The position numbers were made by a program, and so were the translations under genes. From NCBI GenBank assembly GCA_964401135.1, contig CAYNXC010000001.1:210264-274263 (forward strand): a DNA stretch of 64,000 bases, read 5' to 3'. Shown here one piece after another: positions 22,655 to 61,602 of this stretch. This DNA is from an uncultured Candidatus Saccharibacteria bacterium (GTDB lineage Bacteria; Patescibacteriota; Minisyncoccia; Phycocordibacterales; UBA9988). Position 1 is the first letter of the stretch. Each line of letters begins with the position of its first letter. The notes beneath the pieces were generated by a model. That model searched no databases, was not told where the DNA came from, and saw nothing but the letters and a program-made list of their open reading frames with translations.

Positions 22655-25024
22655 TCAACTGCGCAGACGGGTAAGGATGGCGGCTTCAACACTTGTAAGA
22701 TCTCTCCCATATGAGAGGCGGGAAAGTTCTTTTAATTTTTCTGCAACTTCTTGAGATCCTCTCTCGGTAGTGCGCGTTTGGATAGCGAATGCAGGTGAGG
22801 GCTCCCCGTTCACCAAGAGCTTCATAATTGCGTGACGATTTTCTGTACTCATGAGATCAGATGCAGAAAAGGTTGGCTCTACATACTGCTTTAAATACTC
22901 GGCATCTTCAGCCCCCACACGGAAGAGTGCGAGTGACCCCACATTTCCGAAGACTGCCGCCTTGATGGTATCCGAAAGCTGGGCAATAAACTGATGTGCA
23001 AGAGTAAGTGAGAGATGATACTTGCGTGCTTCGGAGAGAATAACCGCAATTGAGTCTGTGGTAAAGTTTTGAAACTCGTCAATGTAGAGATAAAAATCTG
23101 TTCGTGATTGTTCCGACATATCACCTCGAGCAAGCGCGGCCAAAAGAATGCGTCCGGTAATAATCATCCCCAAGAGACCTGCATTAAGATCTCCAATCTT
23201 CCCTTTTGAGAGATTAACGAGTAAAATCTTCTTCGTATCAAGCACTTCCCTAAAGTTAAATGACGATGAAGTTTGCCCAATAATAGGTCGAATGTAATCG
23301 TTTGCAATAAAATTATTAAACTTCGAGGTAATGTAGGGGGTCATATTCGCAAGCCCCTGTTCTCCAGATGTCTTCACTGCCTCTTTTTCCCAAAAATCTA
23401 TGACAACCGGGTTGAGGATGCGAGAGAGCTTACGCTTTCTAAACTCCGGATCGGTAAAGATGCGCGGCACCTCAATCAAAGTGGCGGGTTCATTCTTCAT
23501 ATCCTCCATAAGAAGAAGGAGTGCATTACGCATATACTGCTCAAACATTGGCCCCATTGTCTCCGCCGTAAAAAGACGGTTAAAAATAGACTGGAGTTCG
23601 TTCACAATAAAGGTTCGTTCCTCCGGCTTTTCTGTCTGATGTTCCAACATATTAAGCCCTAGTGGACGCTCGCGATCTCCGGGGTCAAACACGATGACAT
23701 CATTAATACGGCTCTTTGGCACGACGCTCAAGAGGTCGGTAATAAGATCGCCATGCGGGTCTATCACACAGAGGCCGTTCCCAGCCTCAATATCTTGTGC
23801 CGCCATAGTGCGCAGAAGAGAGCTCTTCCCCGTACCTGTCTGGCCAATGAGGTAGAAGTGCCGTAGACGATCAGTGGTGGAGAGGCGCACCGCCTGTGCA
23901 TCGCCACGAAACAGGTTCTCACCAATGGTGACTCCTTCTTGGGAAAGATTTGCGGGGGGAGCCGACTCTCGTGTGCGCAACCAACTTACCCGAGGGATGT
24001 CTAAGGAGTTGGTAGGTAAGTGGAAGATACTAGCCAACTCTTCTGTATTCAAATACATACTCTCGGCATCTCTCCACTCTCTGAATGAGTAACGATACAA
24101 GAGCGACTGTGTGTCGCGAGGAAGCACCGTAACAAAGCCGTTATGTTTTGTGGTAGTGAATTGGGAAAAAGACCCCGCAATAGAAGTAAAGAGGTCATGT
24201 GCCCTATCTTCATTCCCGCCAGAAGTTACAATACGGGCAATCACAGAAAGGAGGGGACTGCCCGCCTTCCGCTCAAGCATAGCAACAGATTCTGTATCAA
24301 CGAGGGATGCGGGTTGAATCTCTACCTTCTTACTCGGTGTTGCGGTAAGCTCTTCATGGAGCTCTTTTAGCCCAAAACTAACTCCTTTCTTTACATCTTC
24401 AAGCTTTACTCCTTTTCTTAGTTGCTCAAGTGCTGATACGAGGCGCTTCTTCGCATTTTGATCAGCGGGGCGGATAAGAAACTGCAGTGAGGCACCGTCC
24501 CCTACACTCTCTAGGTGAGATAAGGTGCTCACGATTGGCGTAAAGGTGTCTAGCGAGGACTCACGATATGTCCGGATGGGGAGGATAAACGACTCTTTGA
24601 GTGAAAGATACCCCGCAACCGCAATACCATGCGGATTGAATACTGAATAGTCGTTCACACGCTCAATGCGTGCCTCAGGGTACAGGCCTCGCACCTGATC
24701 ACTTACATACGCTGCACTCTCACGAGGCACTGATGTATAGAAATAAATTTCCTCTCCAATGTGATGTACCGAGACCTCAAACACAACCGGCCTCCCGATG
24801 GCAGAGAGTGAAGAGAAGAGCTGTTCAGAGAGCGCAATATCTCGGAGTCTTCTCTCTGCATCTCCTCCCGTACCACGAGGCACAGAGATGCGTAAGAGTA
24901 CATACGAGAGGGTAGAGAGGCGCGGACTTCTAAACCACTGAAAGAGGAGTACCAGCATCACCGCGCACGAGAGTGCAGCAATCCCTCCACCAGCTATCCA
25001 CAACAGGCTAGGTAATGAGACCAT
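22655..25024 (-). CDS. VirD4/TraD/TraG-like type IV coupling protein-family ATPase (FtsK/HerA superfamily), membrane-anchored
   Basis: N-terminal TM, Walker A IGQTGTGKSSLL, CVIDPHGDL, Walker B-like YLYIDEFQNF, and LAHQF. A long roughly 380-aa domain precedes the P-loop, which is atypical. Confidence 0.6.
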   Translation of the reverse strand: MVSLPSLLWIAGGGIAALSCAVMLVLLFQWFRSPRLSTLSYVLLRISVPRGTGGDAERRLRDIALSEQLFSSLSAIGRPVVFEVSVHHIGEEIYFYTSVPRESAAYVSDQVRGLYPEARIERVNDYSVFNPHGIAVAGYLSLKESFILPIRTYRESSLDTFTPIVSTLSHLESVGDGASLQFLIRPADQNAKKRLVSALEQLRKGVKLEDVKKGVSFGLKELHEELTATPSKKVEIQPASLVDTESVAMLERKAGSPLLSVIARIVTSGGNEDRAHDLFTSIAGSFSQFTTTKHNGFVTVLPRDTQSLLYRYSFREWRDAESMYLNTEELASIFHLPTNSLDIPRVSWLRTRESAPPANLSQEGVTIGENLFRGDAQAVRLSTTDRLRHFYLIGQTGTGKSSLLRTMAAQDIEAGNGLCVIDPHGDLITDLLSVVPKSRINDVIVFDPGDRERPLGLNMLEHQTEKPEERTFIVNELQSIFNRLFTAETMGPMFEQYMRNALLLLMEDMKNEPATLIEVPRIFTDPEFRKRKLSRILNPVVIDFWEKEAVKTSGEQGLANMTPYITSKFNNFIANDYIRPIIGQTSSSFNFREVLDTKKILLVNLSKGKIGDLNAGLLGMIITGRILLAALARGDMSEQSRTDFYLYIDEFQNFTTDSIAVILSEARKYHLSLTLAHQFIAQLSDTIKAAVFGNVGSLALFRVGAEDAEYLKQYVEPTFSASDLMSTENRHAIMKLLVNGEPSPAFAIQTRTTERGSQEVAEKLKELSRLSYGRDLTSVEAAILTRLRS

Positions 25025-25448: not shown

Positions 25449-27359
25449 ATGAAATCATTGGAAGGATTAAATGAACAACAGCGGAAAGCGGCAGAGATGA
25501 CAGAAGGACCGCTTCTCATTGTTGCAGGAGCAGGCGCCGGAAAGACAAAAACACTCACTCACCGCATTATGCGACTCATGGAGAACAGGGTAGCGCCCGA
25601 GTCTATACTTGCCGTTACCTTTACCAATAAAGCGGCAAAAGAGATGAGTGATCGCGTCCGGCTCTTAACCCCAGAAGGAAAAAGCATTCCGTTTATGAGC
25701 ACCTTCCACGCACTCTGCGTGTATATACTCCGTGAGAACGCATCAAAGATTGGATATCCAAGATACTTCCACATTGCAGATAAAGAGGATTCCCTCTCCC
25801 TCGTCAAGCAAGCAATGGATGAGCTTGGTATCTCACAAAAAGAACACGAACCAAGGAAAATTTTGTCCGCGATCTCACGAGAAAAGAACGCTATGGTTTC
25901 CCGTGTTACCTATGACGAGAAAGCACGCGACCCCTTCAGGAGAAGGGTCGCACAAATCTGGCGTCGCTATGCGGATCTGTGTAAAAAGACACATATGCTA
26001 GACTTCGATGATCTCGTGGGGAAGACGGTGGAGCTATTCCGTAGTGACCCTGAGACCTTGGGACAGTATCAAGATCGCTGGCGCTACATACATATCGACG
26101 AATACCAAGACACAAACACTGCCCAGTATGAGTTGGTATCACTCCTTGCGAAAAAATACAAAAATATTGCCGTCGTGGGAGACGCTGACCAATCTATTTA
26201 TGGGTGGCGAGGTGCCGACTTTACCAATATGCTCAACTTTGAGCGCGACTACCCTGGAGCCGCGGTGGTAATACTGGAAGAAAACTATCGTTCAACACAA
26301 ACCATTATCGCAGCCGCAAATGAGGTGATACAAAAAAATCAGGAACGAACAGAAAAATCACTCTTCACTAAAAATAAAGTTGGCGAAAAGATAGGACTAA
26401 TCACCGCGCTCCATGAGACAGGGGAAGCCCGTGAGGTGGCAAAAAAAGTCCGAGAAGCAATCCACTCTGGTGGTGTGCGAGCATCGGATATTGCAGTACT
26501 CTATCGGGCAAACTTTCAATCTCGCGCACTGGAAGAAGCTTTCCTCTCTCTCGGCATACCCTACCGCGTACTGGGAACTCGCTTCTTTGAACGCAAAGAA
26601 GTAAAAGATATGCTCGCATACCTGCGCGCAGCACTAGATACGGAAGATATAGAGAGTGTGAAGCGTATTATCAATACTCCCAGACGAGGCTTGGGGAAGG
26701 CCGCCGTGGCAAAAATTTTTTCTGGGGCACAGAGTGCCTTAACAGGAACTGCGGCACGGGGTGCTCAACAATTTTTTTCTCTCCTTTCGCATATTAAAGA
26801 GAAGGTAGAGCAAGTACCACTCTCTGAAGTAATGAAATATGTACTTATAGAGAGTGGATGGGAAAGAGAACTACGCGAGGGAGGTGATGAGGGAGAGGAA
26901 CGGTTAGAAAACTTGCGAGAATTAGTAACTATCGCGAACGGGTACGACGCACTCCCGAGAGAGGAGGGGATAGAGCGCTTTCTCACCGATGCGGCACTCC
27001 TCTCTGCAGAAGAGGAAGAGGAGGAGAAAGGGAAGGAGGGAGTGCGGATGATGACTGTGCATGCCGCAAAAGGGCTAGAATTTAACTATGTATTTGTGGT
27101 TGGACTTGAGCAAGACCTATTCCCTCACGCACGCATCTCGGGTGATGGGCGTAATGCGGAAGAGGAGCGAAGACTCTTTTATGTTGCAATTACTCGTGCA
27201 CGGGAGAAATTGTATCTCTCGTACGCACAGACAAGAACCATCTACGGCTCACGGAGAATCAATCTCCCCTCCGAATTCCTCCTTGATATCAGCGACGATC
27301 TTATAGACATGGAGGCGATACACCCCATGGATTCCGAGGATGTGATAGAGTGGGATTAA
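25449..27359 (+). CDS. pcrA: ATP-dependent DNA helicase UvrD/PcrA family
   Basis: Helicase motifs I (AGAGAGKT), II (DEYQDTN) and V/VI (MTVHAAKGLEF; VAITRA). Confidence 0.85.
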   Translation: MKSLEGLNEQQRKAAEMTEGPLLIVAGAGAGKTKTLTHRIMRLMENRVAPESILAVTFTNKAAKEMSDRVRLLTPEGKSIPFMSTFHALCVYILRENASKIGYPRYFHIADKEDSLSLVKQAMDELGISQKEHEPRKILSAISREKNAMVSRVTYDEKARDPFRRRVAQIWRRYADLCKKTHMLDFDDLVGKTVELFRSDPETLGQYQDRWRYIHIDEYQDTNTAQYELVSLLAKKYKNIAVVGDADQSIYGWRGADFTNMLNFERDYPGAAVVILEENYRSTQTIIAAANEVIQKNQERTEKSLFTKNKVGEKIGLITALHETGEAREVAKKVREAIHSGGVRASDIAVLYRANFQSRALEEAFLSLGIPYRVLGTRFFERKEVKDMLAYLRAALDTEDIESVKRIINTPRRGLGKAAVAKIFSGAQSALTGTAARGAQQFFSLLSHIKEKVEQVPLSEVMKYVLIESGWERELREGGDEGEERLENLRELVTIANGYDALPREEGIERFLTDAALLSAEEEEEEKGKEGVRMMTVHAAKGLEFNYVFVVGLEQDLFPHARISGDGRNAEEERRLFYVAITRAREKLYLSYAQTRTIYGSRRINLPSEFLLDISDDLIDMEAIHPMDSEDVIEWD

Positions 27360-28126
27360 TGTACGCAAAAAAGAGCCTCGGGCAACACTTTCTTAACTCA
27401 CAGAGTGTCCTTTCGGCAATCCGTGATGCAGGCGATGTCAATGCGGATGATATCGTACTTGAGATCGGACCTGGGAAAGGAGTGCTAACTGAAATACTTC
27501 TCACATCCGTGGCTAAGGTGGTCGCTGTTGAAAAAGATTCCGCACTTGTGATGTACTTGCGTGAGCGCTTCAATGACGCAATATGCGACGGCCGTCTTGA
27601 TCTTATAGAGCAGGACATATTGGATTTTGATCCGGAAACACTCTCATCTTATGGCTTTTCTTATAAGGTTGTTGCGAATATTCCCTACTACATCACAGGA
27701 GCCATCATTAAGAAATTTTTATCAGCAAGACGACAGCCAGAGCGGATGGTGCTCCTCATACAAAAGGATGTTGCCGAGCGGATCCTTGCAAAGGACGGGA
27801 AGGAGAGCATCCTCTCGCTCTCGGTTAAGGCATACGGGGAGCCGTACTATGAGCAGACGGTAAGGAGTGGATCTTTTAGCCCTGCACCGAAGGTAGATTC
27901 GGCAATTATATGCATACAGGACATATCGCGGGCGCATTTTACACAGGTTTCTGAAGAACAATTCTTTACTCTCATAAAAAAGGGTTTCTCGTCTAAGCGG
28001 AAAATGCTCAAGAATAATATTGAAGCAGATGCTGGGCTACTTACCGGATGTGGTGTTGATGAGAAGGCCCGAGCTGAAGACCTCACACTCACACAATGGC
28101 TATGCCTCGCGTCTCATACCTCATAA
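27350..28126 (+). CDS. rsmA: 16S rRNA (adenine1518/1519-N6)-dimethyltransferase
   Basis: LGQHFL...IGPGKGVLTE SAM-binding motif and the KsgA family pattern. Confidence 0.8.
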   Translation: MGLMYAKKSLGQHFLNSQSVLSAIRDAGDVNADDIVLEIGPGKGVLTEILLTSVAKVVAVEKDSALVMYLRERFNDAICDGRLDLIEQDILDFDPETLSSYGFSYKVVANIPYYITGAIIKKFLSARRQPERMVLLIQKDVAERILAKDGKESILSLSVKAYGEPYYEQTVRSGSFSPAPKVDSAIICIQDISRAHFTQVSEEQFFTLIKKGFSSKRKMLKNNIEADAGLLTGCGVDEKARAEDLTLTQWLCLASHTS

Positions 28127-30297: not shown

Positions 30298-32390
30298 AGG
30301 TACGAGAACATACACTCATTATAATCTCGCTCGGAATCGCCTTTCTTTCAATCTTTTTTGTAGGGTCGCTCACGGTACAGGCAGAGGAACAAAGGGCAAA
30401 CGATAACAGTCTTATTCAAGCTGGTTTTGATTACGGCCCACAAGAAACAATTGCTCAAGAAATTATTAATGGTCGTGCCGAGAACGACCTCAAAGAGTGT
30501 GTCGCAGAAACAGGGAATACTACCTCGGGAGGATCATCCGGTGGCGACTATGTTCCCGTGCATGAAGTGGGGGAGCTCCTCTCGCTCACCACGGGCATCA
30601 ATAAAAAAGTAACGCACGGCAACGATCTCTTGGTAGATATCTGTATGCACTTAAAGGCGATACGACGCGTGCAGTATGTAATGGAGGCACAAGTGCTCTA
30701 CCATGACCCCAATGCGCGCAAGGCCGCGGCAAAGGCAATCTTTGAACACAAACAGTCCTTCATAGAGAACAACATTAAGAAGGGTTATGAAGTTTCTCCC
30801 GCACTCCTCGGTACCAGCGGGACAGAGAGTAGTTCGGAAAATAAGCAGCCGCTCTATGTGGCAAATATGGACGAGCACCTCAAGTCTGTACGCAGTGAGG
30901 CCTACGGAGTTTTTGATGCTGATTTAACCACACTCAACTCTTCAGCAAATCCAAATATCTTCACCGATAGCATCCGCAAAAATCTTGCAGTCTCTGAAGC
31001 AGCAGGGGAGAGTGAGGAATCACGATTGAGGACATCTCTCGGGTCTACTATCACGAAAGATGAATTCAACGCCTTTACCAACGACTTCTCACAAGGTGGG
31101 TGGGATATGTGGCTCAAGGTACTTGATCCACGCAACAACTACAGAGGCTCAAAAATTCTTGCACAGGATGAGCTCAATTATAGAAAGTCACTCGCAGAGA
31201 CAAACGCGAGAGAAGAAATTGCATCAGCAAAAGGATTTCTCCCTGTTCGTGAATGTGCCACAGAAAACTGGGTAACAACTGCTGATGGGAAGAAGTACTG
31301 TAGAAAGTGGACGGTCAAAACTCCTGGGACCATCAACGAGAGTTACCTTGCAGACATTGTCGGGTCAACTCTGCGTCAAAATGAGATAGCAGATCAGTCG
31401 GTGGAAGATTTTAGCAAGACAGAGTTTGCACGCGTAGAGAGTGAGTTAACTAACCTAGAAAAGGTGGGGAAGACGGAGGACAGAGTAGCAGTACAGAGCA
31501 TCTTCCAAAAAGAGGATCCATGCCCCGGACCAGGGCCTTGTGAAGATTCTGGCTGGGTGGGGAGTAGTGCAGGAGGAGGGATAGGCGGAGGAGGAGGTAT
31601 CACTAACCCAACAACACTCGCGCAACAAATTTATAACAATAAAAATACATTACCAGGTCTCCCTGATGGATTACAATCAATCTTCAACATCCCTGGACTC
31701 TCACAGGAAGCAATCATCAAACAGATTACAGAGTGGCTTAAAAAAGATACCAATGGAAATGGTACTCCCGACTACTTAGAGAGTGAGCCCCCGAAGATTG
31801 TCTTTACTGCCGAAACCAACTCCCTTGCAATTGCGGCCGATGCGGATAGAAACACCACAAAACTTACCTGGAATGCGTGGAATGCAACGGAGTGCAGTGC
31901 GGTCAACGACTGGTTGAGTGCAAGTACGATTACAAAATCGCGCGATACCAAGCTCGCCCCAACAGGGACGCTCACCGTACGACACCCATACACCTTTACC
32001 GTGAGTCTCTCTCGGAGTCCTGACTTAAGTGGATGGAGCACGGGGAGAGTAACGAGCGTGGCGGATCAATTTCTCCTCTCTCAAAAAACAACCATTGATC
32101 TCTCTGGTCTTACTGCCGCGTCGGGGTTAAGCTTCACCCTCTCACTTGGCACCAATGCCAACCTCACTGTAGTGGGAAATAGTTCAAATCAAAATCTGAC
32201 ACAGTCATTCAAAGAAGCGTATAACACACTCTCACAGACAGATGTGAATTATTCTGCTTTGCGTGGTAAGTACGCATTCACTTTTGATATCTCAAACAAA
32301 AAAATCTACATCAGTGCCAATCCGATATACAAAATCTCTTGCACGAATGCGAACAGTACAGAATATAAAGATGTAACGATTACGCGATGA
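30294..32390 (+). CDS. Large secreted or surface hypothetical protein (698 aa), T4SS-cluster associated
   Basis: Signal peptide, a Gly-rich stretch GGGIGGGGGITNP, and no recognisable family. ATGA overlap with the previous gene. Confidence 0.5.
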   Translation: MKVREHTLIIISLGIAFLSIFFVGSLTVQAEEQRANDNSLIQAGFDYGPQETIAQEIINGRAENDLKECVAETGNTTSGGSSGGDYVPVHEVGELLSLTTGINKKVTHGNDLLVDICMHLKAIRRVQYVMEAQVLYHDPNARKAAAKAIFEHKQSFIENNIKKGYEVSPALLGTSGTESSSENKQPLYVANMDEHLKSVRSEAYGVFDADLTTLNSSANPNIFTDSIRKNLAVSEAAGESEESRLRTSLGSTITKDEFNAFTNDFSQGGWDMWLKVLDPRNNYRGSKILAQDELNYRKSLAETNAREEIASAKGFLPVRECATENWVTTADGKKYCRKWTVKTPGTINESYLADIVGSTLRQNEIADQSVEDFSKTEFARVESELTNLEKVGKTEDRVAVQSIFQKEDPCPGPGPCEDSGWVGSSAGGGIGGGGGITNPTTLAQQIYNNKNTLPGLPDGLQSIFNIPGLSQEAIIKQITEWLKKDTNGNGTPDYLESEPPKIVFTAETNSLAIAADADRNTTKLTWNAWNATECSAVNDWLSASTITKSRDTKLAPTGTLTVRHPYTFTVSLSRSPDLSGWSTGRVTSVADQFLLSQKTTIDLSGLTAASGLSFTLSLGTNANLTVVGNSSNQNLTQSFKEAYNTLSQTDVNYSALRGKYAFTFDISNKKIYISANPIYKISCTNANSTEYKDVTITR

Positions 32391-34447
32391 AGCACTGCTC
32401 ACGGATAATTGCGGGGACACTCTTTTTTCTCACTATTTTTGTTTTGTTTTTTGGTGTAGTCCAGACAGTAAATGCTCAAGCCCCTTTACCAGTAATTCCT
32501 GGGTATAACGCTCCTGACACTCCTGAATGGCATGAGATAGCAAGAAAACAAAACACAATGGTAACAGAGTCAGTGGGAGGAGAAGGGGGATTGCTTTCAT
32601 TTCTTCTTCCCAGTTTCAGTGATTTAACAAATTGGATTGGGGATGTTATTTCAACCGCACTCATTTGGCTTGCTGGCAACTTCCTTTGGTTGGGCGGCAA
32701 ACTTCTGGATGCTTCCGTCCAATTTAATGTCTGCGATATGAAGAGTCTAATGGGGACGGCTGTTGTCTCCCAGGGGTGGCTTATCGCTCGTAATATCGCT
32801 AACTTCTTCTTCATCTTCATCCTCCTCTACATTGCCATCTCTATTATTTTAAATGTTGGAGAAAGTCAAAAGAGGTTAATTGTATGGGTCGTGATCATTG
32901 CGCTCGTCATTAACTTTAGCGCCGTGCTTACGCGCTTTGTTATTGATGTATCTAACATCTTTGCCTATCAATTCTATTCAAGCATTGTGGGGGGAGGGGA
33001 TCCGTGCACCGAAGAGAGTCGTAATACAACAGGAATTTCTGCTAATTATATGACTGCATTGAAGTTTCAGAAATATGCAGAAGAAGAATCGAGCTCTGAC
33101 TCTCTCTATAAGGGTATTGAAGGATTTGGAGCAAAGACAGTGACAGGAATCATGACGGCAACATTTATTACCATCACTGCATGGAGTTTTATTATTGTCG
33201 CAGCACTAATGATTATCCGTTCCGCGGTGTTAATGATTCTTATTGTGCTCTCACCAATCGCATTTATGGGATTTATCCTACCACAAATAAAACAGGTAAT
33301 GACTAAGTGGTGGGGCGCACTTATTAGTCAAGCCTTCTTTGCGCCGGTGTACCTCTTCTTTGCCTACATCACCCTCGTCCTCGCTAAGGGTACTGTGGCA
33401 CTTTTTTCACAAGAGACTTTTGCCTCTGGATCTGAACAGATATTCAAAATCTTTTTGCAGTACTCAATCCTCATTACACTCATTGTCGTAGGACTCATCC
33501 AAGCAAAAAAGATGAGTGCCGCCGGCGGAGGGGCAGTGCAAGCGCGAGTACTTAAGTCTCTTGATTGGATGCGCGGACAAGCAACAGGAGCCATGGGACG
33601 CAATACAGTGGGGAGACTCGGCCGTCAAATCGCTGATAGTGATCGTGTTAAGAGATGGTCATCAGGCTCTGGTGGTATCTTAAAGAAAGCCGCGGGGATT
33701 CCTATTAAGAATGCAAGTGCTTCTATGGCTGGAGGGAAGTATGGTGGCGGGAAGAGTTACGATGATATTGTTAAGAAGCAAATTGAACGGGCAAAGGGAA
33801 TTGAAGACCCTGCAGATAAAGCGCGCGTCTTGGGAGGAATGAGTACTGCCGCGCGCAGAGAGTACTTTGATAGTCTCTCTGACCGTGAGAAAGCAGAGAC
33901 ACTTGATGCGGCAAAGACTCTCGGGGGCTTCACGCAAGCACGGGTAGAAGGACAGCGTGAGCGACTTACCGCAGAGCAGGTTGAAAAAATGGAGAAGGCA
34001 GGTGGAGAGGGGAAGGATGCTACACGCAAAAAAGAGCAATCCGCAGATATTGAAGCAGTGGTTGGTAATACAGAAAAAGGTATAGCTGGTCTACCAAGAG
34101 GTTCAGACGAGAGAAGAATTAAGATTGAAAAGGTGGTCACAGGACTTAAAGATGATGAGGGACGCAAACTGGCAAAGATTGTTGAAGATGCGGACACGAC
34201 CGACATTGCCACAATGTACGGGAAGATGAACCCACTTGATCTTGTAGACTTAATGGGGAAGGCTAAACTCTCAAATGATGCTAAAGAAAAACTACGAAAG
34301 GGGATGTTGGATCTTGGAGAAGATCACCCAACATTTATTGAGCTACACAGTAATCCAAAATTAAAGATCCTCTTTGGTAGTACACCAATAAACGCACCTA
34401 GGTCAGCACCGACTCCTGCTAATCCTCCAGGAACCACTACAGCATGA
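32387..34447 (+). CDS. VirB6/TrbL-like polytopic membrane protein (T4SS inner-membrane component) with a long hydrophilic C-terminal tail
   Basis: Signal peptide, then at least five or six TM helices in a TrbL/VirB6-like arrangement, then a charged roughly 250-aa tail. Start overlaps the previous gene. Confidence 0.5.
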   Translation: MKHCSRIIAGTLFFLTIFVLFFGVVQTVNAQAPLPVIPGYNAPDTPEWHEIARKQNTMVTESVGGEGGLLSFLLPSFSDLTNWIGDVISTALIWLAGNFLWLGGKLLDASVQFNVCDMKSLMGTAVVSQGWLIARNIANFFFIFILLYIAISIILNVGESQKRLIVWVVIIALVINFSAVLTRFVIDVSNIFAYQFYSSIVGGGDPCTEESRNTTGISANYMTALKFQKYAEEESSSDSLYKGIEGFGAKTVTGIMTATFITITAWSFIIVAALMIIRSAVLMILIVLSPIAFMGFILPQIKQVMTKWWGALISQAFFAPVYLFFAYITLVLAKGTVALFSQETFASGSEQIFKIFLQYSILITLIVVGLIQAKKMSAAGGGAVQARVLKSLDWMRGQATGAMGRNTVGRLGRQIADSDRVKRWSSGSGGILKKAAGIPIKNASASMAGGKYGGGKSYDDIVKKQIERAKGIEDPADKARVLGGMSTAARREYFDSLSDREKAETLDAAKTLGGFTQARVEGQRERLTAEQVEKMEKAGGEGKDATRKKEQSADIEAVVGNTEKGIAGLPRGSDERRIKIEKVVTGLKDDEGRKLAKIVEDADTTDIATMYGKMNPLDLVDLMGKAKLSNDAKEKLRKGMLDLGEDHPTFIELHSNPKLKILFGSTPINAPRSAPTPANPPGTTTA

Positions 34448-34956
34448 ACACATTAACACCAGATCAGCTCCGTGAGATATACAACTCGCTCCCTGAGGAT
34501 CTTCAAGACGCAATGGGTTCGGCACAGACCTCAGAGACAGTACGCCGTATCAGCAACAACTACGGGCTCTCACTAGATCAAATGGGTGAACTTACAGAAG
34601 AGATTGGCCTCACTATGCTTGGTGTAAACACGCTTGAAGATATGCCAAAAAATATTGCGCTTCGACTTGGCACAGATCTCCCTATGGGAACTGCTATTTA
34701 TAGAGATATTAATGGGAGTATCTTCTTAAGGGTGCAGGGGAGCCTAAAGCAAGTACAGGAGCTCCGCGAATCCAAACCTCTACTTACCTACTCCATACAA
34801 AAGGAGAAGATTGTTCCACCTTCCTCACCAACCCCAGCCCCCGTACAAGCACGAGAACAAGCCCTCCCTCAAACACCACACACTGTACTAACTTCGCCAC
34901 ACACCCCAATGCCCAACAAGTCTGCAAATGATCCGTATCGTGAAATAATAGAGTAA
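34444..34956 (+). CDS. Hypothetical cytoplasmic protein, T4SS-cluster associated
   Basis: 170 aa, overlaps both neighbours by a few nucleotides. No motif recognised. Confidence 0.4.
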   Translation: MNTLTPDQLREIYNSLPEDLQDAMGSAQTSETVRRISNNYGLSLDQMGELTEEIGLTMLGVNTLEDMPKNIALRLGTDLPMGTAIYRDINGSIFLRVQGSLKQVQELRESKPLLTYSIQKEKIVPPSSPTPAPVQAREQALPQTPHTVLTSPHTPMPNKSANDPYREIIE

Positions 34957-35387
34957 TGGATTTCCAAGTACCACAATTTATTGAGATAGAGGACAAAATA
35001 TTCGGCCCACTCACCTTCAAACAGTTTGTCTACATTGCCGGTGGAGCGGGGGCGGCATTTGTGCTGTACTCAATTCTCTCTCAATTTCTTCCTTCAGCCA
35101 TCGCAATCATCATCGCTGTCCCCCTTGTTGGCTTGGGACTTGCGCTCGCATTCTATAAAATAAACGAGCGGCCACTCATTTACCTTGTACAAGCCGCGGT
35201 GCTCTATCTTCTTCGCGGAAAGCTGTACCGATGGAGAAAAGAAGAGTATCAGTTAGGAGAAGACCGGGTGAGTCTCCCTTCCGCGCAAAAAAATCCTCTA
35301 CAGGCAACGCCTGTTCGCGGCGACCGTCTCTCTGGTATTGCATGGAATTTAGATGTTCGCAAAGAGATCCCTACCGAACATACATAA
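34956..35387 (+). CDS. PrgI/VirB3-like small membrane protein
   Basis: KIFGPLTFKQF followed by two TM helices. Size and pattern fit the PrgI family of Gram-positive-type T4SS. Confidence 0.5.
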   Translation: MDFQVPQFIEIEDKIFGPLTFKQFVYIAGGAGAAFVLYSILSQFLPSAIAIIIAVPLVGLGLALAFYKINERPLIYLVQAAVLYLLRGKLYRWRKEEYQLGEDRVSLPSAQKNPLQATPVRGDRLSGIAWNLDVRKEIPTEHT

Positions 35388-35390
35388 GCT

Positions 35391-36050
35391 ATGGCAACAA
35401 AACAAGCAAACGCTTCACAAAAATTTCTCCCTATCCGCGAAATACGCGATAGTGTTGTGGTACTCTCTGATGGTGGAATGCGTATGGCCTTAATGGCCTC
35501 GTCTCTTAACTTTGCACTGAAATCACAAGACGAACAGATGGCAATACTACTCCAGTTTCAAAATTTTTTAAATGCTCTTGATTTTCATATTGAGTTTTTC
35601 ATAGAATCTCGCCGCTTGGACATACGACCCTACCTGCGCATCCTTGAGGACCGTATGAAGGAGCAGGTCAACGATCTGGTAAAAATACAAACCAAAGAGT
35701 ATCTGGACTTTGTGCGCAGTTTTACTGAGAGTACCAATGTGATGTCTAAATCATTCTTTGTGGTAGTGCCCTACAGTCCTCCAATCATCCAGAACTCAAG
35801 TGGATTTTTTGGGAAAATGTTTAATCGGGATAAAACTAATACTCAAGCTCTAGATGAGAGTGCATTTGAAGAACATCGGACACAACTTGAACAGCGTTCG
35901 TATGTCGTTGCACAGGGACTTGCCGCGTTCGGAGTACGATCAGTCATCCTTGGTACCGATGAGCTGGTAGAGCTCTATTACAAATTATTTAACCCCGGAG
36001 AGAAGGATGCGCCACAACCGGGAAGCTACACCAACAATGCCTCTGTTTAA
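35391..36050 (+). CDS. VirB4-like N-terminal domain as a separate ORF (possible split or frameshifted virB4)
   Basis: Immediately precedes, and overlaps in another frame, the VirB4 ATPase ORF. Size of about 219 aa matches the VirB4 N-terminal domain. Confidence 0.45.
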   Translation: MATKQANASQKFLPIREIRDSVVVLSDGGMRMALMASSLNFALKSQDEQMAILLQFQNFLNALDFHIEFFIESRRLDIRPYLRILEDRMKEQVNDLVKIQTKEYLDFVRSFTESTNVMSKSFFVVVPYSPPIIQNSSGFFGKMFNRDKTNTQALDESAFEEHRTQLEQRSYVVAQGLAAFGVRSVILGTDELVELYYKLFNPGEKDAPQPGSYTNNASV

Positions 36051-37875
36051 GAAAAAAGAAGTGTCTGAGGAGGAGGCAAGTGTCTCCGTCATCCCCCGTG
36101 ATTTTTATGAGGGCAATCAACTTTCTCTCAAGGATGTCATCGCCCCTGCTGCGCTCCAAGTTAATCCAAGCTTCATCAACATTGGCGGTAAGTACGCACG
36201 CACCTTCTTTGTTATCTCCTACCCTCGACAGTTAGCAAAGAGTTGGTTTAGTCCCATCATCAACCTTGACCGTGTGTTTGATATTTCTATCTATGTGCAC
36301 CCTATTGACACTTCGGTAGTCCTCCGACAATTACAGAAAAAAGTTGCCGAGGTACAGAGCCAAATTTCAGTACGAGAGGAGCGGGGAATGGTGCGTGACC
36401 CCAAACTAGACACCGCGTACCAAGATATAGAATTCCTCCGCGACCAGCTCCAGCAATCGCGAGAAAAAATGTTTGATGTGGGTCTCTATCTCACCTTTTA
36501 TGGAGAGAGCGAGGAAGAGCTCAACAAAACAGAATCGGAAGTAAAAAGTATGTTGGAGTCAAAACTGGTATATGTGAAGCCTGCTGTATTTCAACAAGAA
36601 GATGGTTGGAAGAGCACTTTGCCGCTCGGTATGGACTTACTCTCTGTACATTCAAAATTGAACTCCTCTCCACTCTCATCACTCTTCCCCTTTACCTCGT
36701 TTGACCTTACCAGTAACCAAGGGATCCTCTACGGCATCAACCGTCACAACGCCTCACTGGTGATGTTTGATCGCTTTTCAATGGAGAATTACAACTCCGT
36801 CACCTTTGCCAAGTCTGGATCGGGCAAGTCTTACGCCACCAAACTAGAGATCCTCCGGAGTCTTATGTTTGATGTGGATGTGATAGTGATAGACCCTGAA
36901 CGAGAGTATGAGTATATGGCGGAATCTGCAGGAGGGCGTTATTTTAACATTTCACTCACTTCAGAGCACCATATTAACCCATTTGATTTACCATTTCCCC
37001 GCGAAGATGAATCGCCTGCAGATGTATTACGGAGTAACATCATTAACCTCGTTGGGCTCTTTCGTATTATGTTGGGAGGCCTCACCCCTGAAGAAGACTC
37101 TATCATTGATTCTGCTATTACAGAGACTTACGCACTCAAAGATATTACTGCAGACAGCGATTTTACCGGAAAACCTGCCCCTATCCTCTCTGACCTTAAC
37201 CTCGTACTTGCCTCTATGGAAGGAGGGGAGTCGCTCTCACAGAGACTCAATAAGTACACTCAAGGCACCTGGGCGGGGTTCTTAAACCAACCAACCAATG
37301 TAGACATCAATAAAAAGTTTGTAGTCTTTTCAATCCGTGATATGGAGGATGAGCTCAAGCCTGTCGCAATGTACATTATTATGCACCATATTTGGAATGT
37401 AGTGCGCCGGACGCTTAAAAAAAGGATTCTAGTGGTAGATGAGGCGTGGTGGATGATGAAGGCAGAAGATACAGCCTCCTTTCTCTTCTCACTCGCTAAG
37501 CGCGGAAGAAAGTACTACTTAGGTCTCGCTACCATTACACAAGATGTAGGCGACTTCTTAAAGTCACCTTACGGGCTCCCTATGATTACCAACTCATCTA
37601 TACAAATACTCCTAAAACAATCGCCGGCATCTATTGATCTTGTTCAACAAACCTTTAACCTCACCGATGAGGAGAAGTACCTCCTCCTTGAGTCAGCAGT
37701 GGGGGAGGGAATCTTTTTTGCTGGGCTAAAGCATGTAGCGATTAAGGTAATCGCTTCGTACACCGAGGATCAAATCATTACCTCCGATCCTTCGCAGGTA
37801 CTCGCCATTAAAAAAGCGAAGGATGAACTGCGAGCGGCAGAGAGTGCTGGTCCCGTTGCAGGAGCTACGGCATGA
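36037..37875 (+). CDS. virB4: VirB4/TrbE/CagE-family conjugative transfer ATPase (C-terminal ATPase portion)
   Basis: Walker A FAKSGSGKSY, Walker B LVVDEAWWMM, and the overall VirB4 motor pattern. Confidence 0.8.
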   Translation: MPLFKKKEVSEEEASVSVIPRDFYEGNQLSLKDVIAPAALQVNPSFINIGGKYARTFFVISYPRQLAKSWFSPIINLDRVFDISIYVHPIDTSVVLRQLQKKVAEVQSQISVREERGMVRDPKLDTAYQDIEFLRDQLQQSREKMFDVGLYLTFYGESEEELNKTESEVKSMLESKLVYVKPAVFQQEDGWKSTLPLGMDLLSVHSKLNSSPLSSLFPFTSFDLTSNQGILYGINRHNASLVMFDRFSMENYNSVTFAKSGSGKSYATKLEILRSLMFDVDVIVIDPEREYEYMAESAGGRYFNISLTSEHHINPFDLPFPREDESPADVLRSNIINLVGLFRIMLGGLTPEEDSIIDSAITETYALKDITADSDFTGKPAPILSDLNLVLASMEGGESLSQRLNKYTQGTWAGFLNQPTNVDINKKFVVFSIRDMEDELKPVAMYIIMHHIWNVVRRTLKKRILVVDEAWWMMKAEDTASFLFSLAKRGRKYYLGLATITQDVGDFLKSPYGLPMITNSSIQILLKQSPASIDLVQQTFNLTDEEKYLLLESAVGEGIFFAGLKHVAIKVIASYTEDQIITSDPSQVLAIKKAKDELRAAESAGPVAGATA

Positions 37876-39248: not shown

Positions 39249-40496
39249 ATGAAAATTATTCTTCACACACTCGTAGCATTCTCTATTTTTTCAAGCATCA
39301 TCACAGTTGCTTTTGCAGCAGAAGGGGGTGGTATTATTCTCTTAGAGCCGAGTGTGGTAAATGCGGGTGAAAATAGCCGAGTCCAATTTGGTCAGTATAT
39401 GTCAACGCTCTTTACCACCTTTATTACCGTAGCGGCAGTGCTTGCGGTACTTATGATTGTGATTGGCGGCATCCAATACATCACTTCATTCTCTGGTAGC
39501 GGTAAAGAACAGGGGAGGGTGCGCATTACCAATGCTATTTTTGGCCTCCTTTTGGCGGTATCTGCGTTCCTCATTCTCCAAACAGTGAATCCGGACTTAG
39601 TCTCGAGCGACACTCTCTCGCTTGATATTGGTAAGTTCTCTCCTATCACACAAAGTATTGCAAATGGATTATATAGCAAAGATGGAACTCGCGATGAGGC
39701 TCATGAGACTAAAGAAACAGATAAATCTGAGGAGGCCGCTGAATGGGGCCGTTGCACTCAAAATGGGTACAAAAAGTGTGTATGGATGGAAAATTGTGTC
39801 TCCATCGGGCCAGACAACCAACCTCTACCATATGTGGAAATACCAAAAAACAACTGTGACAAGCCGGCTATTGCGGACCAGATTGCCTCTTCTATATGTT
39901 GTGGAATGATAGATACTGAAAATAAAAAATATTATTTTATTAACACTGACGAAAGCTGTATTTCTTCTGCTTATAACAGCCTGAATGAATGTAACTCAGC
40001 AAAACCGAGTAACACTGCATGTAGGGATACCGAGATGACTCGTAGAGCCAACGAGACTTTAAATTACCCTCAATGTAGCAATCCTTCTGGGGGTAGTGAA
40101 GGGGGAGACACTTCAACAATTGGACAATGGCAGTATCAAACAGGGATTGAGAGACAAGCGGGAGACATGTCTAGCTCCGTTACTTCATTACTCTCCTGCA
40201 TGAGAGAGAAAATTCCTGACACATCTGTCGGGCAGATTTCTTCAATCAGTGACTCTAGACATATAGGAAACTTGTCTTCTTGTAATCAGGCAAACTGTAG
40301 TGGATGTTCTCACTCATGTAGATCTTGTCACTACGGGGGAGGAGTTTCTGGAGCTAAATCTATGGCAGTTGACTTCGGTGATGAGTGGAATAAGAAAAAG
40401 ATTATAAGTGCAGCAAGAGCATGTGACCCAGAGGCCTATATTCTTGACGAAGGGAACCATATCCACGTAAGCACAAGCGCCTGTCCTCGTGATTAA
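39249..40496 (+). CDS. Pilin-like (VirB2/TrbC-like hairpin) N-terminus fused to a Cys-rich C-terminal domain with a putative M15-like zinc-hydrolase motif
   Basis: Signal peptide plus two long hydrophobic helices separated by a short loop. C-terminal region has more than 20 Cys, SCHYGGGVSGAKSMAVDF and EGNHIHVS. Confidence 0.45.
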   Translation: MKIILHTLVAFSIFSSIITVAFAAEGGGIILLEPSVVNAGENSRVQFGQYMSTLFTTFITVAAVLAVLMIVIGGIQYITSFSGSGKEQGRVRITNAIFGLLLAVSAFLILQTVNPDLVSSDTLSLDIGKFSPITQSIANGLYSKDGTRDEAHETKETDKSEEAAEWGRCTQNGYKKCVWMENCVSIGPDNQPLPYVEIPKNNCDKPAIADQIASSICCGMIDTENKKYYFINTDESCISSAYNSLNECNSAKPSNTACRDTEMTRRANETLNYPQCSNPSGGSEGGDTSTIGQWQYQTGIERQAGDMSSSVTSLLSCMREKIPDTSVGQISSISDSRHIGNLSSCNQANCSGCSHSCRSCHYGGGVSGAKSMAVDFGDEWNKKKIISAARACDPEAYILDEGNHIHVSTSACPRD

Positions 40497-41765: not shown

Positions 41766-42464
41766 CTACGCGTGGAGGCGTTTATAGCCCTGTTCGTAAG
41801 CAATAGAGAAGAGGGTGTTAGTAAGCCAGTACAGAGCAACTGCGGCAGGGAGGCCAGCTGATACCACACCAATCACTATCGGCATAATATACTTCATTTG
41901 GAACTGCAGACTTCGATTAAAATCCTCAGCAAACGAGCGTTCTTCAGTTTGATTTGGAGAGGATGAGGGGAGAGAGAGTTTTGTGTGAATAAACTGTGCA
42001 ATGGTAATAATTACTGCAAACACAATACTTTTTGCACCTAGATCAACACCAAGAAAGATGGCATTAACATACGATGGCGCATGAACAAATGAGTAGAGCC
42101 CGTACTTGAGAGACTCCAGACCATCCCGAAAGACAAGAAATAAGCCAATAAATATGGGTATTTGCACTAAAATAACGGCAAACCCAGCAAAGGGATTGAC
42201 CCGGTGTTCTTTATAGAGCGCCATGACGCGACGAGCCTCCTCTTCACGATTACCAACAGTGTCTTTTTTGATTTTTTTCAGCTCCGGTTCTATTTTTTTC
42301 AGCTCTTTCTGTGTAGATAGAGCTCTATTTTGGAGAGGGATAAGCACTATCTTTACCAGCACTGTAAGAACAATAATAGAAAGTCCAATACTATTCCCAG
42401 GGAGTACTCCTGTTAAAAACACGAGGGCATTATAGAGAGGTTCGGATATGAGTGTATGGAACAT
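41766..42464 (-). CDS. yidC: Membrane protein insertase YidC/Oxa1 (short form)
   Basis: Conserved YidC core LIPLQNRALSTQKELKKIEPELKKIKK...NPFAG. Position is downstream of rnpA. Confidence 0.85.
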   Translation of the reverse strand: MFHTLISEPLYNALVFLTGVLPGNSIGLSIIVLTVLVKIVLIPLQNRALSTQKELKKIEPELKKIKKDTVGNREEEARRVMALYKEHRVNPFAGFAVILVQIPIFIGLFLVFRDGLESLKYGLYSFVHAPSYVNAIFLGVDLGAKSIVFAVIITIAQFIHTKLSLPSSSPNQTEERSFAEDFNRSLQFQMKYIMPIVIGVVSAGLPAAVALYWLTNTLFSIAYEQGYKRLHA

Positions 42465-43096: not shown

Positions 43097-44440
43097 ATGG
43101 ACAACAAAGATCTTTGGGACAACGCCCTTGCGGAGATTGAAGTATATGTATCAAAAGCTAATTTTGGAACATGGTTTCGTAATACAGTAATTCTAAAGAC
43201 GGAAGGTGGGACAGTACATCTCGGAGTACCTAATGCTTTTGTGAAGGATTGGCTATCTAATAAATACCATCTTTCTATTCTTAAAGCGTTGAGAAATCAC
43301 TCTGAACAAATAAAGCATGTTGAATATATTGTTATTCGTGGAGAAAAGATAAAGATAGAAGAACTGCCAGTTAAACCCCTCTTTCGCGATCAATTAGAGC
43401 TATCTGAGTTGTATGTAAACAAAGAAGACAACTTAAACCCAAAATACATCTTTGATTCTTTTATTGTTGGACCATTTAACGAGACAGCATACGCCGCAGG
43501 ACAAGCAATCATTAAATCTCCAGGGACTACATACAATCCCTTATACATCTATGGAGGTACAGGGTTAGGAAAAACACACCTCACCCAAGCAATAGGGAAC
43601 ACCATCAAACAATTACACCCAAATAAAAAAGTTTACTACATTACTTCGGAGAAATTTGTTATCGAGGTAGTAAATGCAATTCAGAACAATAAAGCAAATG
43701 TATTCAAGGAAAAATATCGTAAGTATGATGTGTTTATTATGGATGATGTTCAATTTATTGCTAATAAAGATAAAACACAAGAAGAATTATTCCATTTATT
43801 TAATAGCCTATACGATCAAAATAAGCAGATTATTTTTTCATCAGATAAAATTCCAAAATATATACCAAACTTAGAAGAACGGTTACGATCTCGTTTTGAA
43901 GGTGGAATGATTATTGATATTGCACTACCAGACTACGAATCTCGCCTAGCAATATTAAAATCTAAGATAAAACAGAGTGATTTTTCTCCATCTGATGAGA
44001 TCATTGAATATGTTGCGTCAGTTATTAAGGGAAATATTAGAGAATTAGAAGGTGTTCTTAACTCTATTATTTGCCAATGCCAGTTAAAAAATAGAAATTT
44101 GAATTTGAGTGAGGTAAAAAACCTTATAAAAAATACCATAAAACCACAAAAAACCATCTCTATTAAGGATGTTCTTAAGATTATTGCTGGGTTTTATAGT
44201 ATTGATGAGAAGGTACTCTATGAAAAAACAAGGAGGAAGGAGGTAGTAAAACCGAGACAAATTATTATGTATATCCTCCGTGAAGATTTCAACATCTCTT
44301 ATCCTTACATTGGTCAAAAATTAGGTGGGAGAGATCACACAACTGTGATTCATGCATATGAAAAAATAAAAAAAGAAGTAAAACAGAATAATCTTATTAC
44401 ACAAGAAGTCGAACAAATACGGTCATTACTATACAACTAA
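43097..44440 (+). CDS. dnaA: Chromosomal replication initiator DnaA
   Basis: AAA+ Walker A GGTGLGKTHL, box VII, and the C-terminal DNA-binding signature KLGGRDHTTV. Confidence 0.9.
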   Translation: MDNKDLWDNALAEIEVYVSKANFGTWFRNTVILKTEGGTVHLGVPNAFVKDWLSNKYHLSILKALRNHSEQIKHVEYIVIRGEKIKIEELPVKPLFRDQLELSELYVNKEDNLNPKYIFDSFIVGPFNETAYAAGQAIIKSPGTTYNPLYIYGGTGLGKTHLTQAIGNTIKQLHPNKKVYYITSEKFVIEVVNAIQNNKANVFKEKYRKYDVFIMDDVQFIANKDKTQEELFHLFNSLYDQNKQIIFSSDKIPKYIPNLEERLRSRFEGGMIIDIALPDYESRLAILKSKIKQSDFSPSDEIIEYVASVIKGNIRELEGVLNSIICQCQLKNRNLNLSEVKNLIKNTIKPQKTISIKDVLKIIAGFYSIDEKVLYEKTRRKEVVKPRQIIMYILREDFNISYPYIGQKLGGRDHTTVIHAYEKIKKEVKQNNLITQEVEQIRSLLYN

Positions 44441-44657: not shown

Positions 44658-45752
44658 ATGAAAGTAGAATGTGTAAAAGAAAAACTAAAGGACGCATTAC
44701 TTACTGCTGATCGTATTACAGGTAAAAATTTATCGCTCCCCATCCTTTCTTATATTTATCTGCGAGCAATAAAAAATAAAATAATTATTAGATCAACAAA
44801 CCTTGATATTGGTGTTGAGATTATACTACCAGCAAAAGTAGTGAGAGAAGGACTAGTTGTTGTTCCTGGTTCATTACTTATTTCTGTACTATCAAATTCA
44901 ACCCATGAGATGATTACCCTTGAAGAAGTGAATGGTAATATAACAATTACTACACCAAATTTAAATACAATTATTAAGAGTGTCCCGAGTGATGATTATC
45001 CAAATTTACCTAAAAACGAAACAAGTGATGAGTATACACTACATACTTCACTCCTTACTTTAGGTATACAATCTGTTGTATTTGCGGCCTCATTGAGTGA
45101 TATTAAACCAGAAATAGCGAGTGTTTATATCTACTCTCACGACTCTCAATTATTATTTGTTTCGACTGATGGATTTAGATTGGCTGAAAAAAAGTTTCCA
45201 ATAAAATTATCACATGAATTTAAAGCCATTATTCCTTATAGAAATGCACTTGAAATAGCAAAGATCTTAGTTGGAAGTGATGAAGATTCTAAGATATTAC
45301 TCTCACCATCACTTATATCAATTCAAAGTGGGAACTATACTATTACTTCACGACTTATTGATGGGGTATATCCAGATTATCCACAATTAATACCATCATC
45401 ATTTTCTACTACATCAAGAATACCAAAACAGGACCTTGTAAACACATTACGACTCGCTCATATTTTTTGTGATAGAACAAATCAAATTCAACTTACTATT
45501 CAAGTGAGTGAAGCACTTTTTATGATTTATTCTCAAAATACTGAGAAGGGTGAATACTCGTCATCATTACAGTCAATTGTTGATGGTGAAGATCTACAGA
45601 TGAATGTTAATGTACGATATTTAGTGGATATATTATCCATTCTTCACAACCCAACAGTGTTTATTGGGTGTAATGGTCGTGGTAAGCCACTTTTTGTTCG
45701 GGATGATGGTGATAATTCTTTTCTATATCTTGTCATGCCAATGAATCGGTAA
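44658..45752 (+). CDS. dnaN: DNA polymerase III beta sliding clamp
   Basis: Position after dnaA, roughly 364 aa, three-domain clamp-like pattern. Confidence 0.8.
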   Translation: MKVECVKEKLKDALLTADRITGKNLSLPILSYIYLRAIKNKIIIRSTNLDIGVEIILPAKVVREGLVVVPGSLLISVLSNSTHEMITLEEVNGNITITTPNLNTIIKSVPSDDYPNLPKNETSDEYTLHTSLLTLGIQSVVFAASLSDIKPEIASVYIYSHDSQLLFVSTDGFRLAEKKFPIKLSHEFKAIIPYRNALEIAKILVGSDEDSKILLSPSLISIQSGNYTITSRLIDGVYPDYPQLIPSSFSTTSRIPKQDLVNTLRLAHIFCDRTNQIQLTIQVSEALFMIYSQNTEKGEYSSSLQSIVDGEDLQMNVNVRYLVDILSILHNPTVFIGCNGRGKPLFVRDDGDNSFLYLVMPMNR

Positions 45753-61489: not shown

Positions 61490-61527
61490 CGTGGACAGAG
61501 GGGGAGTCTGTGGTATTATTTCGCGAG

Positions 61528-61600
61528 CCGCCCATAGCTCAGTCGGTAGAGCAGCTCCCTTTTAAGGAGAGGGTCGTAGGTTCGAATCCTACTGGGCGGA
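61528..61600 (+). tRNA. tRNA-Lys (anticodon UUU)
   Basis: Acceptor CCGCCCA/TGGGCGG, D-arm GCTCAGTCGGTAGAGC, anticodon loop CTTTTAA, T-arm GTAGGTTCGAATCCTAC. Confidence 0.8.
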
Positions 61601-61602
61601 TA

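Follow-up and report, generated by a model that had tools for sequence, protein, structure and literature searches.

In the 64,000-nucleotide (nt) stretch of DNA analysed here, which we call the window, the VirB4 ATPase of a type IV secretion system (T4SS) is very probably encoded by two genes that arose through a genuine and ancient fission of virB4 and that now form two cistrons of one operon, a TrsD-like open reading frame (ORF1) and an ATPase-body reading frame (ORF2). ORF1 (35391..36050, + strand), which is TrsD-like and corresponds to the first part of the VirB4 N-terminal domain, starts with ATG, encodes 219 amino acids (aa) and ends with the stop codon TAA at 36048-36050. ORF2 (36037..37875, + strand, 612 aa) encodes the VirB4 body, that is, the rest of the N-terminal region and the C-terminal P-loop ATPase; from an alternative upstream ATG at 36007 (+ strand) it would comprise 622 aa to the same end at 37875. 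As read from the sequence, the start of ORF2 and the stop of ORF1 overlap by 14 nt (ATGCCTCTGTTTAA; 36037..36050, + strand), or by 44 nt if ORF2 starts at 36007, and relative to ORF1 the frame of ORF2 is +1. A previous, sequence-only reading of the window had described the first ORF as ending inside the start of the second in another frame, and our analysis confirmed the coordinates and the +1 frame. It had also read the pair as the N-terminal and the Walker-motif portion of one divided VirB4, with a combined length equal to that of an intact VirB4 (about 830 aa). The two lengths add up to 831 aa, the concatenated protein aligns as one VirB4, and the division is supported by colinear model alignments, a fused orthologue (P0232) and structural matches to TrwK.

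ORF2 is a VirB4-family T4SS ATPase that contains the remaining N-terminal region and a RecA-like ATPase domain. It scored 375.4 bits with the NCBIfam model NF045971 conju_CD1110 (cut-off 325), covering positions 181-733 of 752, and since this score exceeds the curated cut-off, ORF2 is a real gene rather than a chance reading frame. The P-loop NTPase motifs of the family were present as Walker A (AKSGSGKS; 36808..36831, + strand) and Walker B (ILVVDE; 37426..37443, + strand). Pfam families detected in ORF2 were P-loop_TraG (E 5.8e-25), AAA_10 and DUF87, and the protein matched the VirB4 C-terminal domain of PDB 4AG5 (E 1.4e-42) as well as residues 300-735 of TrwK. Other VirB4 and TraC models were matched by ORF2 only from position ~245-290 onward, with the alignment to TIGR00929 starting at position 258 of 792. 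A complete VirB4 N-terminal domain was thus not found in the single polypeptide of ORF2, and ORF1 provides what is missing.

ORF1 encodes a TrsD-like protein whose counterpart in VirB4 is the first stretch, ~200 residues long, of the N-terminal domain. It aligned with positions 99-233 of NCBIfam VirB4_plasma (E 6.9e-8) and with positions 12-119 of NCBIfam CD1110 (E 5.7e-3), which shows that its sequence is homologous to the N-termini of undivided VirB4 proteins. Alignment to full-length VirB4 models, which the sequence-only reading had proposed as a check, therefore placed ORF1 in the N-terminal part and ORF2 at CD1110 positions 181-733. A profile search of the ORF1 homologues against PDB sequences gave no match even at E<=10. 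We modelled ORF1 with AlphaFold2 (predicted local distance difference test, pLDDT, 70.5), and in a Foldseek search of the PDB with this model the top 12 matches were all chains of R388 TrwK/VirB4 (probabilities 0.85-1.0). A database search yielded 7,339 homologues of ORF1 at E<=1e-3, and because of these ORF1 is a real gene and not a chance ORF. The best 120 of them were all standalone proteins of 207-234 aa from Patescibacteria (Vogel-, Kaiser- and Nomurabacteria, Paceibacterota), and 118 of these 120 carry PF26593 in precomputed tables, which also assign Pfam PF26593.2 'TraC-like' to a protein identical to ORF1. The alignment of the best homologues was strongly conserved and ended uniformly a few residues past an FNPGE motif. 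The sequence-only reading would have been overturned if ORF1 were a conserved standalone protein of related genomes with no similarity to VirB4 N-terminal domains; ORF1 is indeed conserved and standalone, yet it is similar to the VirB4 N-terminal domain, so that the reading stands.

The matches of ORF1 and ORF2 to VirB4 models were colinear and did not overlap. When the two proteins were concatenated, residues 5-771 gave a single alignment with positions 4-726 of TIGR00929 VirB4_CagE, and the VirB4_plasma score rose from 262.9 to 297.9 bits. This continuous alignment and the gain in score show that ORF1 supplies exactly what ORF2 lacks. We also searched 1.84 billion cluster representatives (50%-identity clusters) with a profile of the ORF1 family and found 3,104 clusters with an ORF1-type domain at E<=1e-3. 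Among the best 150 clusters the domain was always at or near the N-terminus, and 149 representatives were 161-443 aa long. The sole exception was P0232, a fused protein of 797 aa, of which residues 4-210 align with ORF1 (41% identity) and residues 225-796 with ORF2 (56% identity), the linker being ~26 residues shorter than the ORF1 tail and ORF2 head combined. Its gene (positions 544-2937 of locus L086) lies in a Patescibacteria metagenome-assembled genome (GCA_964615945.1) with PrgI upstream and yidC-rnpA-dnaA-dnaN downstream. The fusion was seen on a single contig, CAZTUR010000004.1, and reflects either re-fusion of the two genes or a faulty assembly; the colinear match shows directly that ORF1 and ORF2 together amount to one VirB4. 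Representatives of 356-443 aa (P0153, P0182, P0199 and P0229) had low-complexity C-terminal tails of 100-230 residues rich in Pro, Ala, Gln and Thr. Such tails were found on many more distant TrsD-like proteins and are absent from ORF1 of the window.

The two-gene layout is conserved far beyond the window. Twenty-one contigs that were assembled independently carry the exact ORF1 protein; the same overlapping pair of 219 and 622 aa was present in all four places shown, which stem from four different sequencing runs. A scan of species-representative genomes gave 526 confirmed loci, of which we analysed the best 80; the relatives of the window were all Paceibacteria-type genomes. Across these 80 species amino-acid identity was 53-65% for ORF1 and 68-79% for ORF2. 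In 79 of 80 an ORF2 orthologue was found downstream on the same strand, and in each of these 79 loci it had its own ATG and was separated from the ORF1 orthologue by a stop codon (fused: 0/79). Comparison of one gene versus two at orthologous loci, another check suggested by the sequence-only reading, thus came out in favour of two genes. The frame of ORF2 relative to ORF1 was +1 in 35 loci, +2 in 27 and 0 in 17. Of the 76 loci with enough upstream sequence, 72 have a PrgI homologue as the immediate upstream neighbour of the ORF1 orthologue, in the same orientation. In a single locus of the 80, L078 (CAZTTV010000081.1), the virB4-body homologue was found upstream on the opposite strand. The L078 contig is short (2.8 kb), and rearrangement or misassembly is possible.

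The distance from the ORF1 stop to the ORF2 start had a median of 5 nt and lay between -4 and +10 nt in 49 of the 79 loci (range -4 to ~500 nt). To judge from the sequences, these distances are the pattern of translationally coupled cistrons, and in the window the 14-nt overlap is likely to be the site of coupling. A start of ORF2 at 36037 (MPLF...) agrees with the N-terminus M-x-[LIF]-[FL] that is conserved among the 79 orthologues, which favours this ATG as the true start. In a Vogelbacteria relative (L087, 79% identical) the overlap and both ATGs are kept. The 14-nt overlap contains no homopolymer of 4 or more bases, and the only such runs within 35990..36060 are CCCC at 35993-35996 and AAAAAA at 36052-36057. 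A slippery poly-A or poly-T run, for which the sequence-only reading had recommended a search at 36000..36050, was therefore not found there. The A6 run was considered as a candidate and rejected, as it is located downstream of the ORF1 stop, where slippage cannot join the frames of ORF1 and ORF2.

A similar division is known from the conjugative plasmids pSK41/pGO1 of Staphylococcus aureus, in which the genes follow the same order and encode proteins of similar size: a small VirB3-like membrane protein (TrsC 135 aa versus PrgI 143 aa), a soluble protein (TrsD 227 aa versus ORF1 219 aa) and a short VirB4 ATPase (TrsE 672 aa versus ORF2 612 aa). The PrgI-like protein is the positional equivalent of pSK41 TrsC, and the size of ORF1 (219 aa) and its position between the PrgI gene (143 aa) and a short virB4 fit TrsD-like proteins. 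pSK41 TrsE aligned with ORF2 from end to end (25% identity, E 3e-39), and in the CD1110 profile the alignments of both begin at position ~181-183, from which it follows that the break point is the same in TrsD/TrsE and ORF1/ORF2. In the precomputed tables the ORF1 family shares PF26593 with TrsD/TraD homologues of the staphylococcal type, of which 19 were found and 18 carry it. The two small proteins also differ: pSK41 TrsD scored 227.6 bits on the NCBIfam TrsD/TraD model, which ORF1 did not match, whereas ORF1 is nearer to intact VirB4 N-termini (E 6.9e-8) and pSK41 TrsD matched no VirB4 model at E<=1. The NCBIfam name 'TrsD/TraD' also takes in TraD-named proteins. Unlike the staphylococcal system, which is a plasmid conjugation apparatus, the system of the window is chromosomal, lies next to dnaA and includes VirB2-like pilin genes.

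Intact VirB4 proteins (R388 TrwK, PDB 7O41/8RTB; the CD1110 family; VirB4 of a Mycoplasma integrative and conjugative element, ICE) are single polypeptides, in contrast to the two polypeptides of the window, which together cover the whole profile of intact VirB4 colinearly. Walker A follows ~260 residues after the break, which is located within the long N-terminal region and not at the boundary between the N- and C-terminal domains. VirB3-VirB4 fusions of some conjugative systems indicate that the domain boundaries of the VirB3/VirB4 module are evolutionarily plastic. However, those are fusions, whereas the window presents a fission with PrgI as a separate gene, and excerpts of Quinonero-Coronel et al. 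2025 (PMC12102498) report that no VirB3-VirB4 fusions were found in Patescibacteria.

We propose that ORF2 would be translated from its own ATG, most likely that at 36037, through termination-reinitiation coupled to ORF1, and that this coupling would keep the two polypeptides near a 1:1 ratio. The ORF1 and ORF2 polypeptides are predicted to reassemble non-covalently into a VirB4-like unit. In R388, according to a review (PMC12857230), the VirB4 N-terminal domains link the protomers of dimers, are embedded in the membrane and touch VirB3 and VirB8. By analogy, the TrsD-like piece may provide membrane association, contact with VirB3 (PrgI) and pairing of protomers, while the ATPase ring, which drives assembly and secretion, would be built from ORF2.

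Several observations weigh against this interpretation. A local Pfam-A scan of ORF1 returned no family at E<=0.1, although the precomputed tables list PF26593; the Pfam library copies or thresholds differ. ORF1 also gave no match to the NCBIfam TrsD/TraD model NF041427 (E<=0.1; family cut-off 200 bits), and ORF1 is consequently TrsD-like but not a member of the narrow NCBIfam TrsD/TraD subfamily. In a hhalign comparison the ORF1 family aligned with a TrsD alignment at 24% probability (E 8e-4, 64 colinear columns), and with pSK41 TrsD alone at 9.5% probability, which was colinear but weak. As direct similarity is weak, the link to TrsD rests on the shared Pfam family, synteny and the literature. 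TrsD itself has no assigned function in the excerpts of PMC12102498, and the binding of ORF1 to ORF2 and the docking roles are predictions. At the junction, the start of ORF2 is either 36007 or 36037: the conserved N-terminus makes 36037 the most likely, but gene callers picked 36007, which has GGAG 6 nt upstream. Finally, in a crude scan Shine-Dalgarno-like motifs upstream of the ORF2 start were rare (2/79 loci), a scarcity that fits translational coupling without proving it.

The sequence-only reading had considered a genuine split, a programmed frameshift or a sequencing indel as the cause of the arrangement. A sequencing or assembly indel would mean that a 1-nt error has split a single VirB4 of ~830 aa, and the +1 frame difference with overlapping ORFs is the expected product of such an error. 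Yet an error of this kind does not account for an identical ORF1 on 21 contigs with the same overlap in all four places shown, for the same junction in a 79%-identical relative, or for 79 species that have two genes in all three frame relations and none fused; the overlap moreover lacks a homopolymer. We regard this explanation as having practically no chance of being correct. The same holds for recent pseudogenization of a formerly intact VirB4. Broken genes do build up in reduced genomes, and split ORFs are a classic sign of them, but both halves are strongly conserved across the 80 species (ORF1 53-65%, ORF2 68-79%), both ORFs are of full length with the Walker motifs of ORF2 intact, the break point coincides with that of pSK41 TrsD/TrsE, and a TrsD homologue of Candidatus (Ca.) Southlakia epibionticum is reported as essential in excerpts of PMC12102498. 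If a programmed +1 frameshift or other recoding event at the ORF1 stop were at work, a fused full-length VirB4 would be the functional product. ORF2 is in the required +1 frame, a shift at GTT-TAA-G (36045-36051) would read on to the AAG AAA AAA of ORF2, the junction is conserved in L087, and a minor fused product in this sub-lineage is possible. However, neither the conserved frame nor the conserved slippery or stimulatory site of prfB/dnaX-type frameshifting was found across the 79 loci: relative frames are distributed as +1/+2/0 = 35/27/17, gaps extend from -4 to ~500 nt, junction sequences are unrelated, and in several relatives a complete 23S_rRNA_IVP gene is located between the two genes. 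In the window, no slippery heptamer and no upstream stimulator of the Shine-Dalgarno type were found next to the ORF1 stop, re-pairing from GUU to UUU would be poor by codon-anticodon rules, and the initiator Met and N-terminus of ORF2 are conserved. We consider recoding very improbable. Of the three causes named at the outset, the genuine split stands, whereas the 21 contigs, the two-gene layout of 79 species with genes often separated, and the occurrence of all three frames exclude an indel and a conserved programmed frameshift, and likewise a pseudogene.

The strongest of the remaining alternatives takes ORF1 for an autonomous accessory protein of VirB4 N-terminal descent that has ceased to complete ORF2 and might serve as a regulator, as a chaperone of assembly or as an adaptor to another machine, and ORF2 for a naturally short VirB4. 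According to excerpts of PMC12102498, TrsD homologues of Gracilibacteria are not associated with virB4. In our set, the genes of L078 lie on opposite strands, and the long, low-complexity and disordered C-terminal tails of many relatives suggest extra roles. Nevertheless, ORF2 starts at CD1110 position 181 and has no region equivalent to ORF1, the fused orthologue P0232 joins the pieces colinearly, and the tight stop/start coupling and the order PrgI-ORF1-ORF2 in most species point to a stoichiometric partnership, so that we judge an autonomous ORF1 unlikely. A similarly doubtful elaboration of the fission is that it is functionally exploited, with the TrsD-like piece as a detachable docking module, or that +1 slippage yields a minor fused isoform in the Vogelbacteria sub-lineage. 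If the piece acted as a docking module, stoichiometry would be set by coupling and uncoupled where an inverted-repeat cassette separates the genes, and the choice of partner (PrgI/VirB3 or the disordered tails) could switch the VirB4 motor, for instance between pilus biogenesis and secretion.

In five relatives the ORF1 and ORF2 orthologues were 420-500 nt apart. The spacers between the trsD-like gene and virB4 (L012 4140-4581; L023 4134-4629; L049 4128-4548; L053 4149-4612; L065 4128-4577) each contain an ORF of ~115-135 aa on the same strand, which in L012, L049, L053 and L065 matches the Pfam family 23S_rRNA_IVP (four-helix bundle) with E 1e-26 to 1e-37 as a complete gene and in L023 is apparently of the same kind but broken into two open stretches. 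In the three loci checked (L012, L049 and L053) the cassette is flanked by inverted repeats of 30-34 nt that consist of ~7-nt tandem units and differ in sequence between loci. About 10 more loci carry similar IVP genes between other genes of the same operon, and the window has none. The IVP element looks like a small mobile or intervening-sequence (IVS)-like cassette aimed at operon junctions, and its long-range stem might either be recognised by RNase III or draw the two cistrons closer to each other. Spacers of 60-200 nt upstream of the virB4 ATG were detected in nine further loci (L006, L011, L038, L042, L050, L056, L062, L073 and L080). These shorter spacers contain degenerate 7-8-nt tandem repeats (TTGTAGG x3 in L062, TTCGTTA x3 in L006, TTTCGTA/TTTCGGA in L080), which may be remnant arms of IVP-type cassettes or regulatory repeats.

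The operon of the window encodes, in this order, a VirB6-like protein, a 170-aa ORF, a PrgI/VirB3-like protein, ORF1, ORF2, a 108-aa ORF, a 364-aa ORF and a pilin-domain protein. The VirB6/TrbL-like polytopic membrane protein (32387..34447, + strand, 686 aa) matched Pfam TrbL PF04610 with E 4.3e-4, below the gathering score. Immediately upstream of ORF1, the small PrgI/VirB3-like membrane protein (34956..35387, + strand, 143 aa) matched PrgI PF12666 (E 7.8e-12), and the protein with an N-terminal T4SS (VirB2-like) pilin domain (39249..40496, + strand, 415 aa) matched T4SS_pilin PF18895 with 28.3 bits (cut-off 26.6). About 10 kb upstream, a VirD4/TrwB-like coupling-protein-type ATPase is encoded at 22655..25024 (- strand; Pfam TrwB_AAD_bind, T4SS-DNA_transf and TraG-D_C). 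The operon lies ~2.6 kb from dnaA (43097..44440, + strand; Pfam Bac_DnaA) and is flanked by ksgA (27350..28126), yidC (41766..42464, - strand; Pfam 60KD_IMP) and dnaN (44658..45752, + strand; Pfam DNA_pol3_beta). With virB4, a PrgI-type VirB3, a VirB6-like protein and a VirB2-like pilin encoded on the chromosome near dnaA, it has the gene content of the Patescibacteria-clade T4SS (MPF_FATA-related), and it is a chromosomal, origin-proximal T4SS typical of Patescibacteria (class Paceibacteria).

Two side observations concern the neighbourhood of the ATPase genes and the window at large. In loci L001, L002 and L003, ORF1 and ORF2 are 100% identical between L001 and the other two, while neighbouring genes differ: L001 has a VirB6-like gene of 686 aa and a pilin-domain gene of 415 aa, against 698 aa for the VirB6-like gene of L002 and L003 and 421 aa for the pilin-domain gene of L002. 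This suggests strain-level variation of surface or membrane components around a fixed ATPase pair. Elsewhere in the window, ARAGORN reported a 'tRNA-Stop' with anticodon tta (UAA suppressor) at 61528..61600 (+ strand), inside a mechanically called ORF at 61510..62088, and Rfam detected a tRNA at the same position (71.1 bits). Numbered by hand, this tRNA is a canonical cloverleaf with the anticodon loop C-U-UUU-A-A and a body much like bacterial tRNA-Lys; it is most likely a tRNA-Lys(UUU) for which the ARAGORN anticodon register is off by one. Readthrough of the ORF1 stop by a suppressor tRNA was rejected on these grounds and because reading past the ORF1 TAA meets a TGA six codons on and is in the wrong frame.

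The arrangement of the window is the standard, published combination of a TrsD-like gene and virB4 in Patescibacteria T4SS loci and is thus already known. The excerpts of Quinonero-Coronel et al. 2025 (PMC12102498) describe TrsD as remotely homologous to the N-terminal portion of VirB4 and treat it as a separate component. Counted there with the CONJScan/MacSyFinder profile T4SS_trsD, TrsD is the most abundant T4SS component in Patescibacteria, with 2,272 homologues, of which 1,664 adjoin virB4, and the TrsD homologue of Ca. Southlakia epibionticum is listed as essential. They also place the T4SS loci of Paceibacteria near dnaA, dnaN, ksgA and rnpA. The system described in these excerpts shares with the window a TrsD homologue by virB4, a PrgI-type VirB3, a VirB6-like protein, a VirB2-like pilin and the neighbours ksgA/yidC/dnaA/dnaN; we found no essential difference, and the window represents one more member. 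A full-text literature search returned no paper on a 'split VirB4', as the arrangement runs under the term TrsD. The same excerpts contain no statement on a virB4 that lacks the TrsD part, on a coupling junction or on fused orthologues. Relative to them, our analysis adds the colinear complementarity of ORF1 and ORF2, the break point shared with TrsD/TrsE, the junction statistics, the fused orthologue and the insertions of IVP cassettes.

Our result is an annotation caveat and not a discovery. In the annotation of Patescibacteria, VirB4 halves that overlap out of frame should be neither merged nor marked as a frameshift, pseudogene or assembly error, and the small upstream gene should be labelled as TrsD-like or as the VirB4 N-terminal piece. 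Wang et al. 2023 (PMC10633639) report that the T4SS is essential for epibiotic growth in Ca. Southlakia epibionticum, and its essentiality in the one genetically tractable member of these ultrasmall epibionts is reported both there and in the excerpts of PMC12102498. To know that the motor is made of two polypeptides, with the putative part for membrane association and VirB3 docking on its own, is useful for structural and genetic work.

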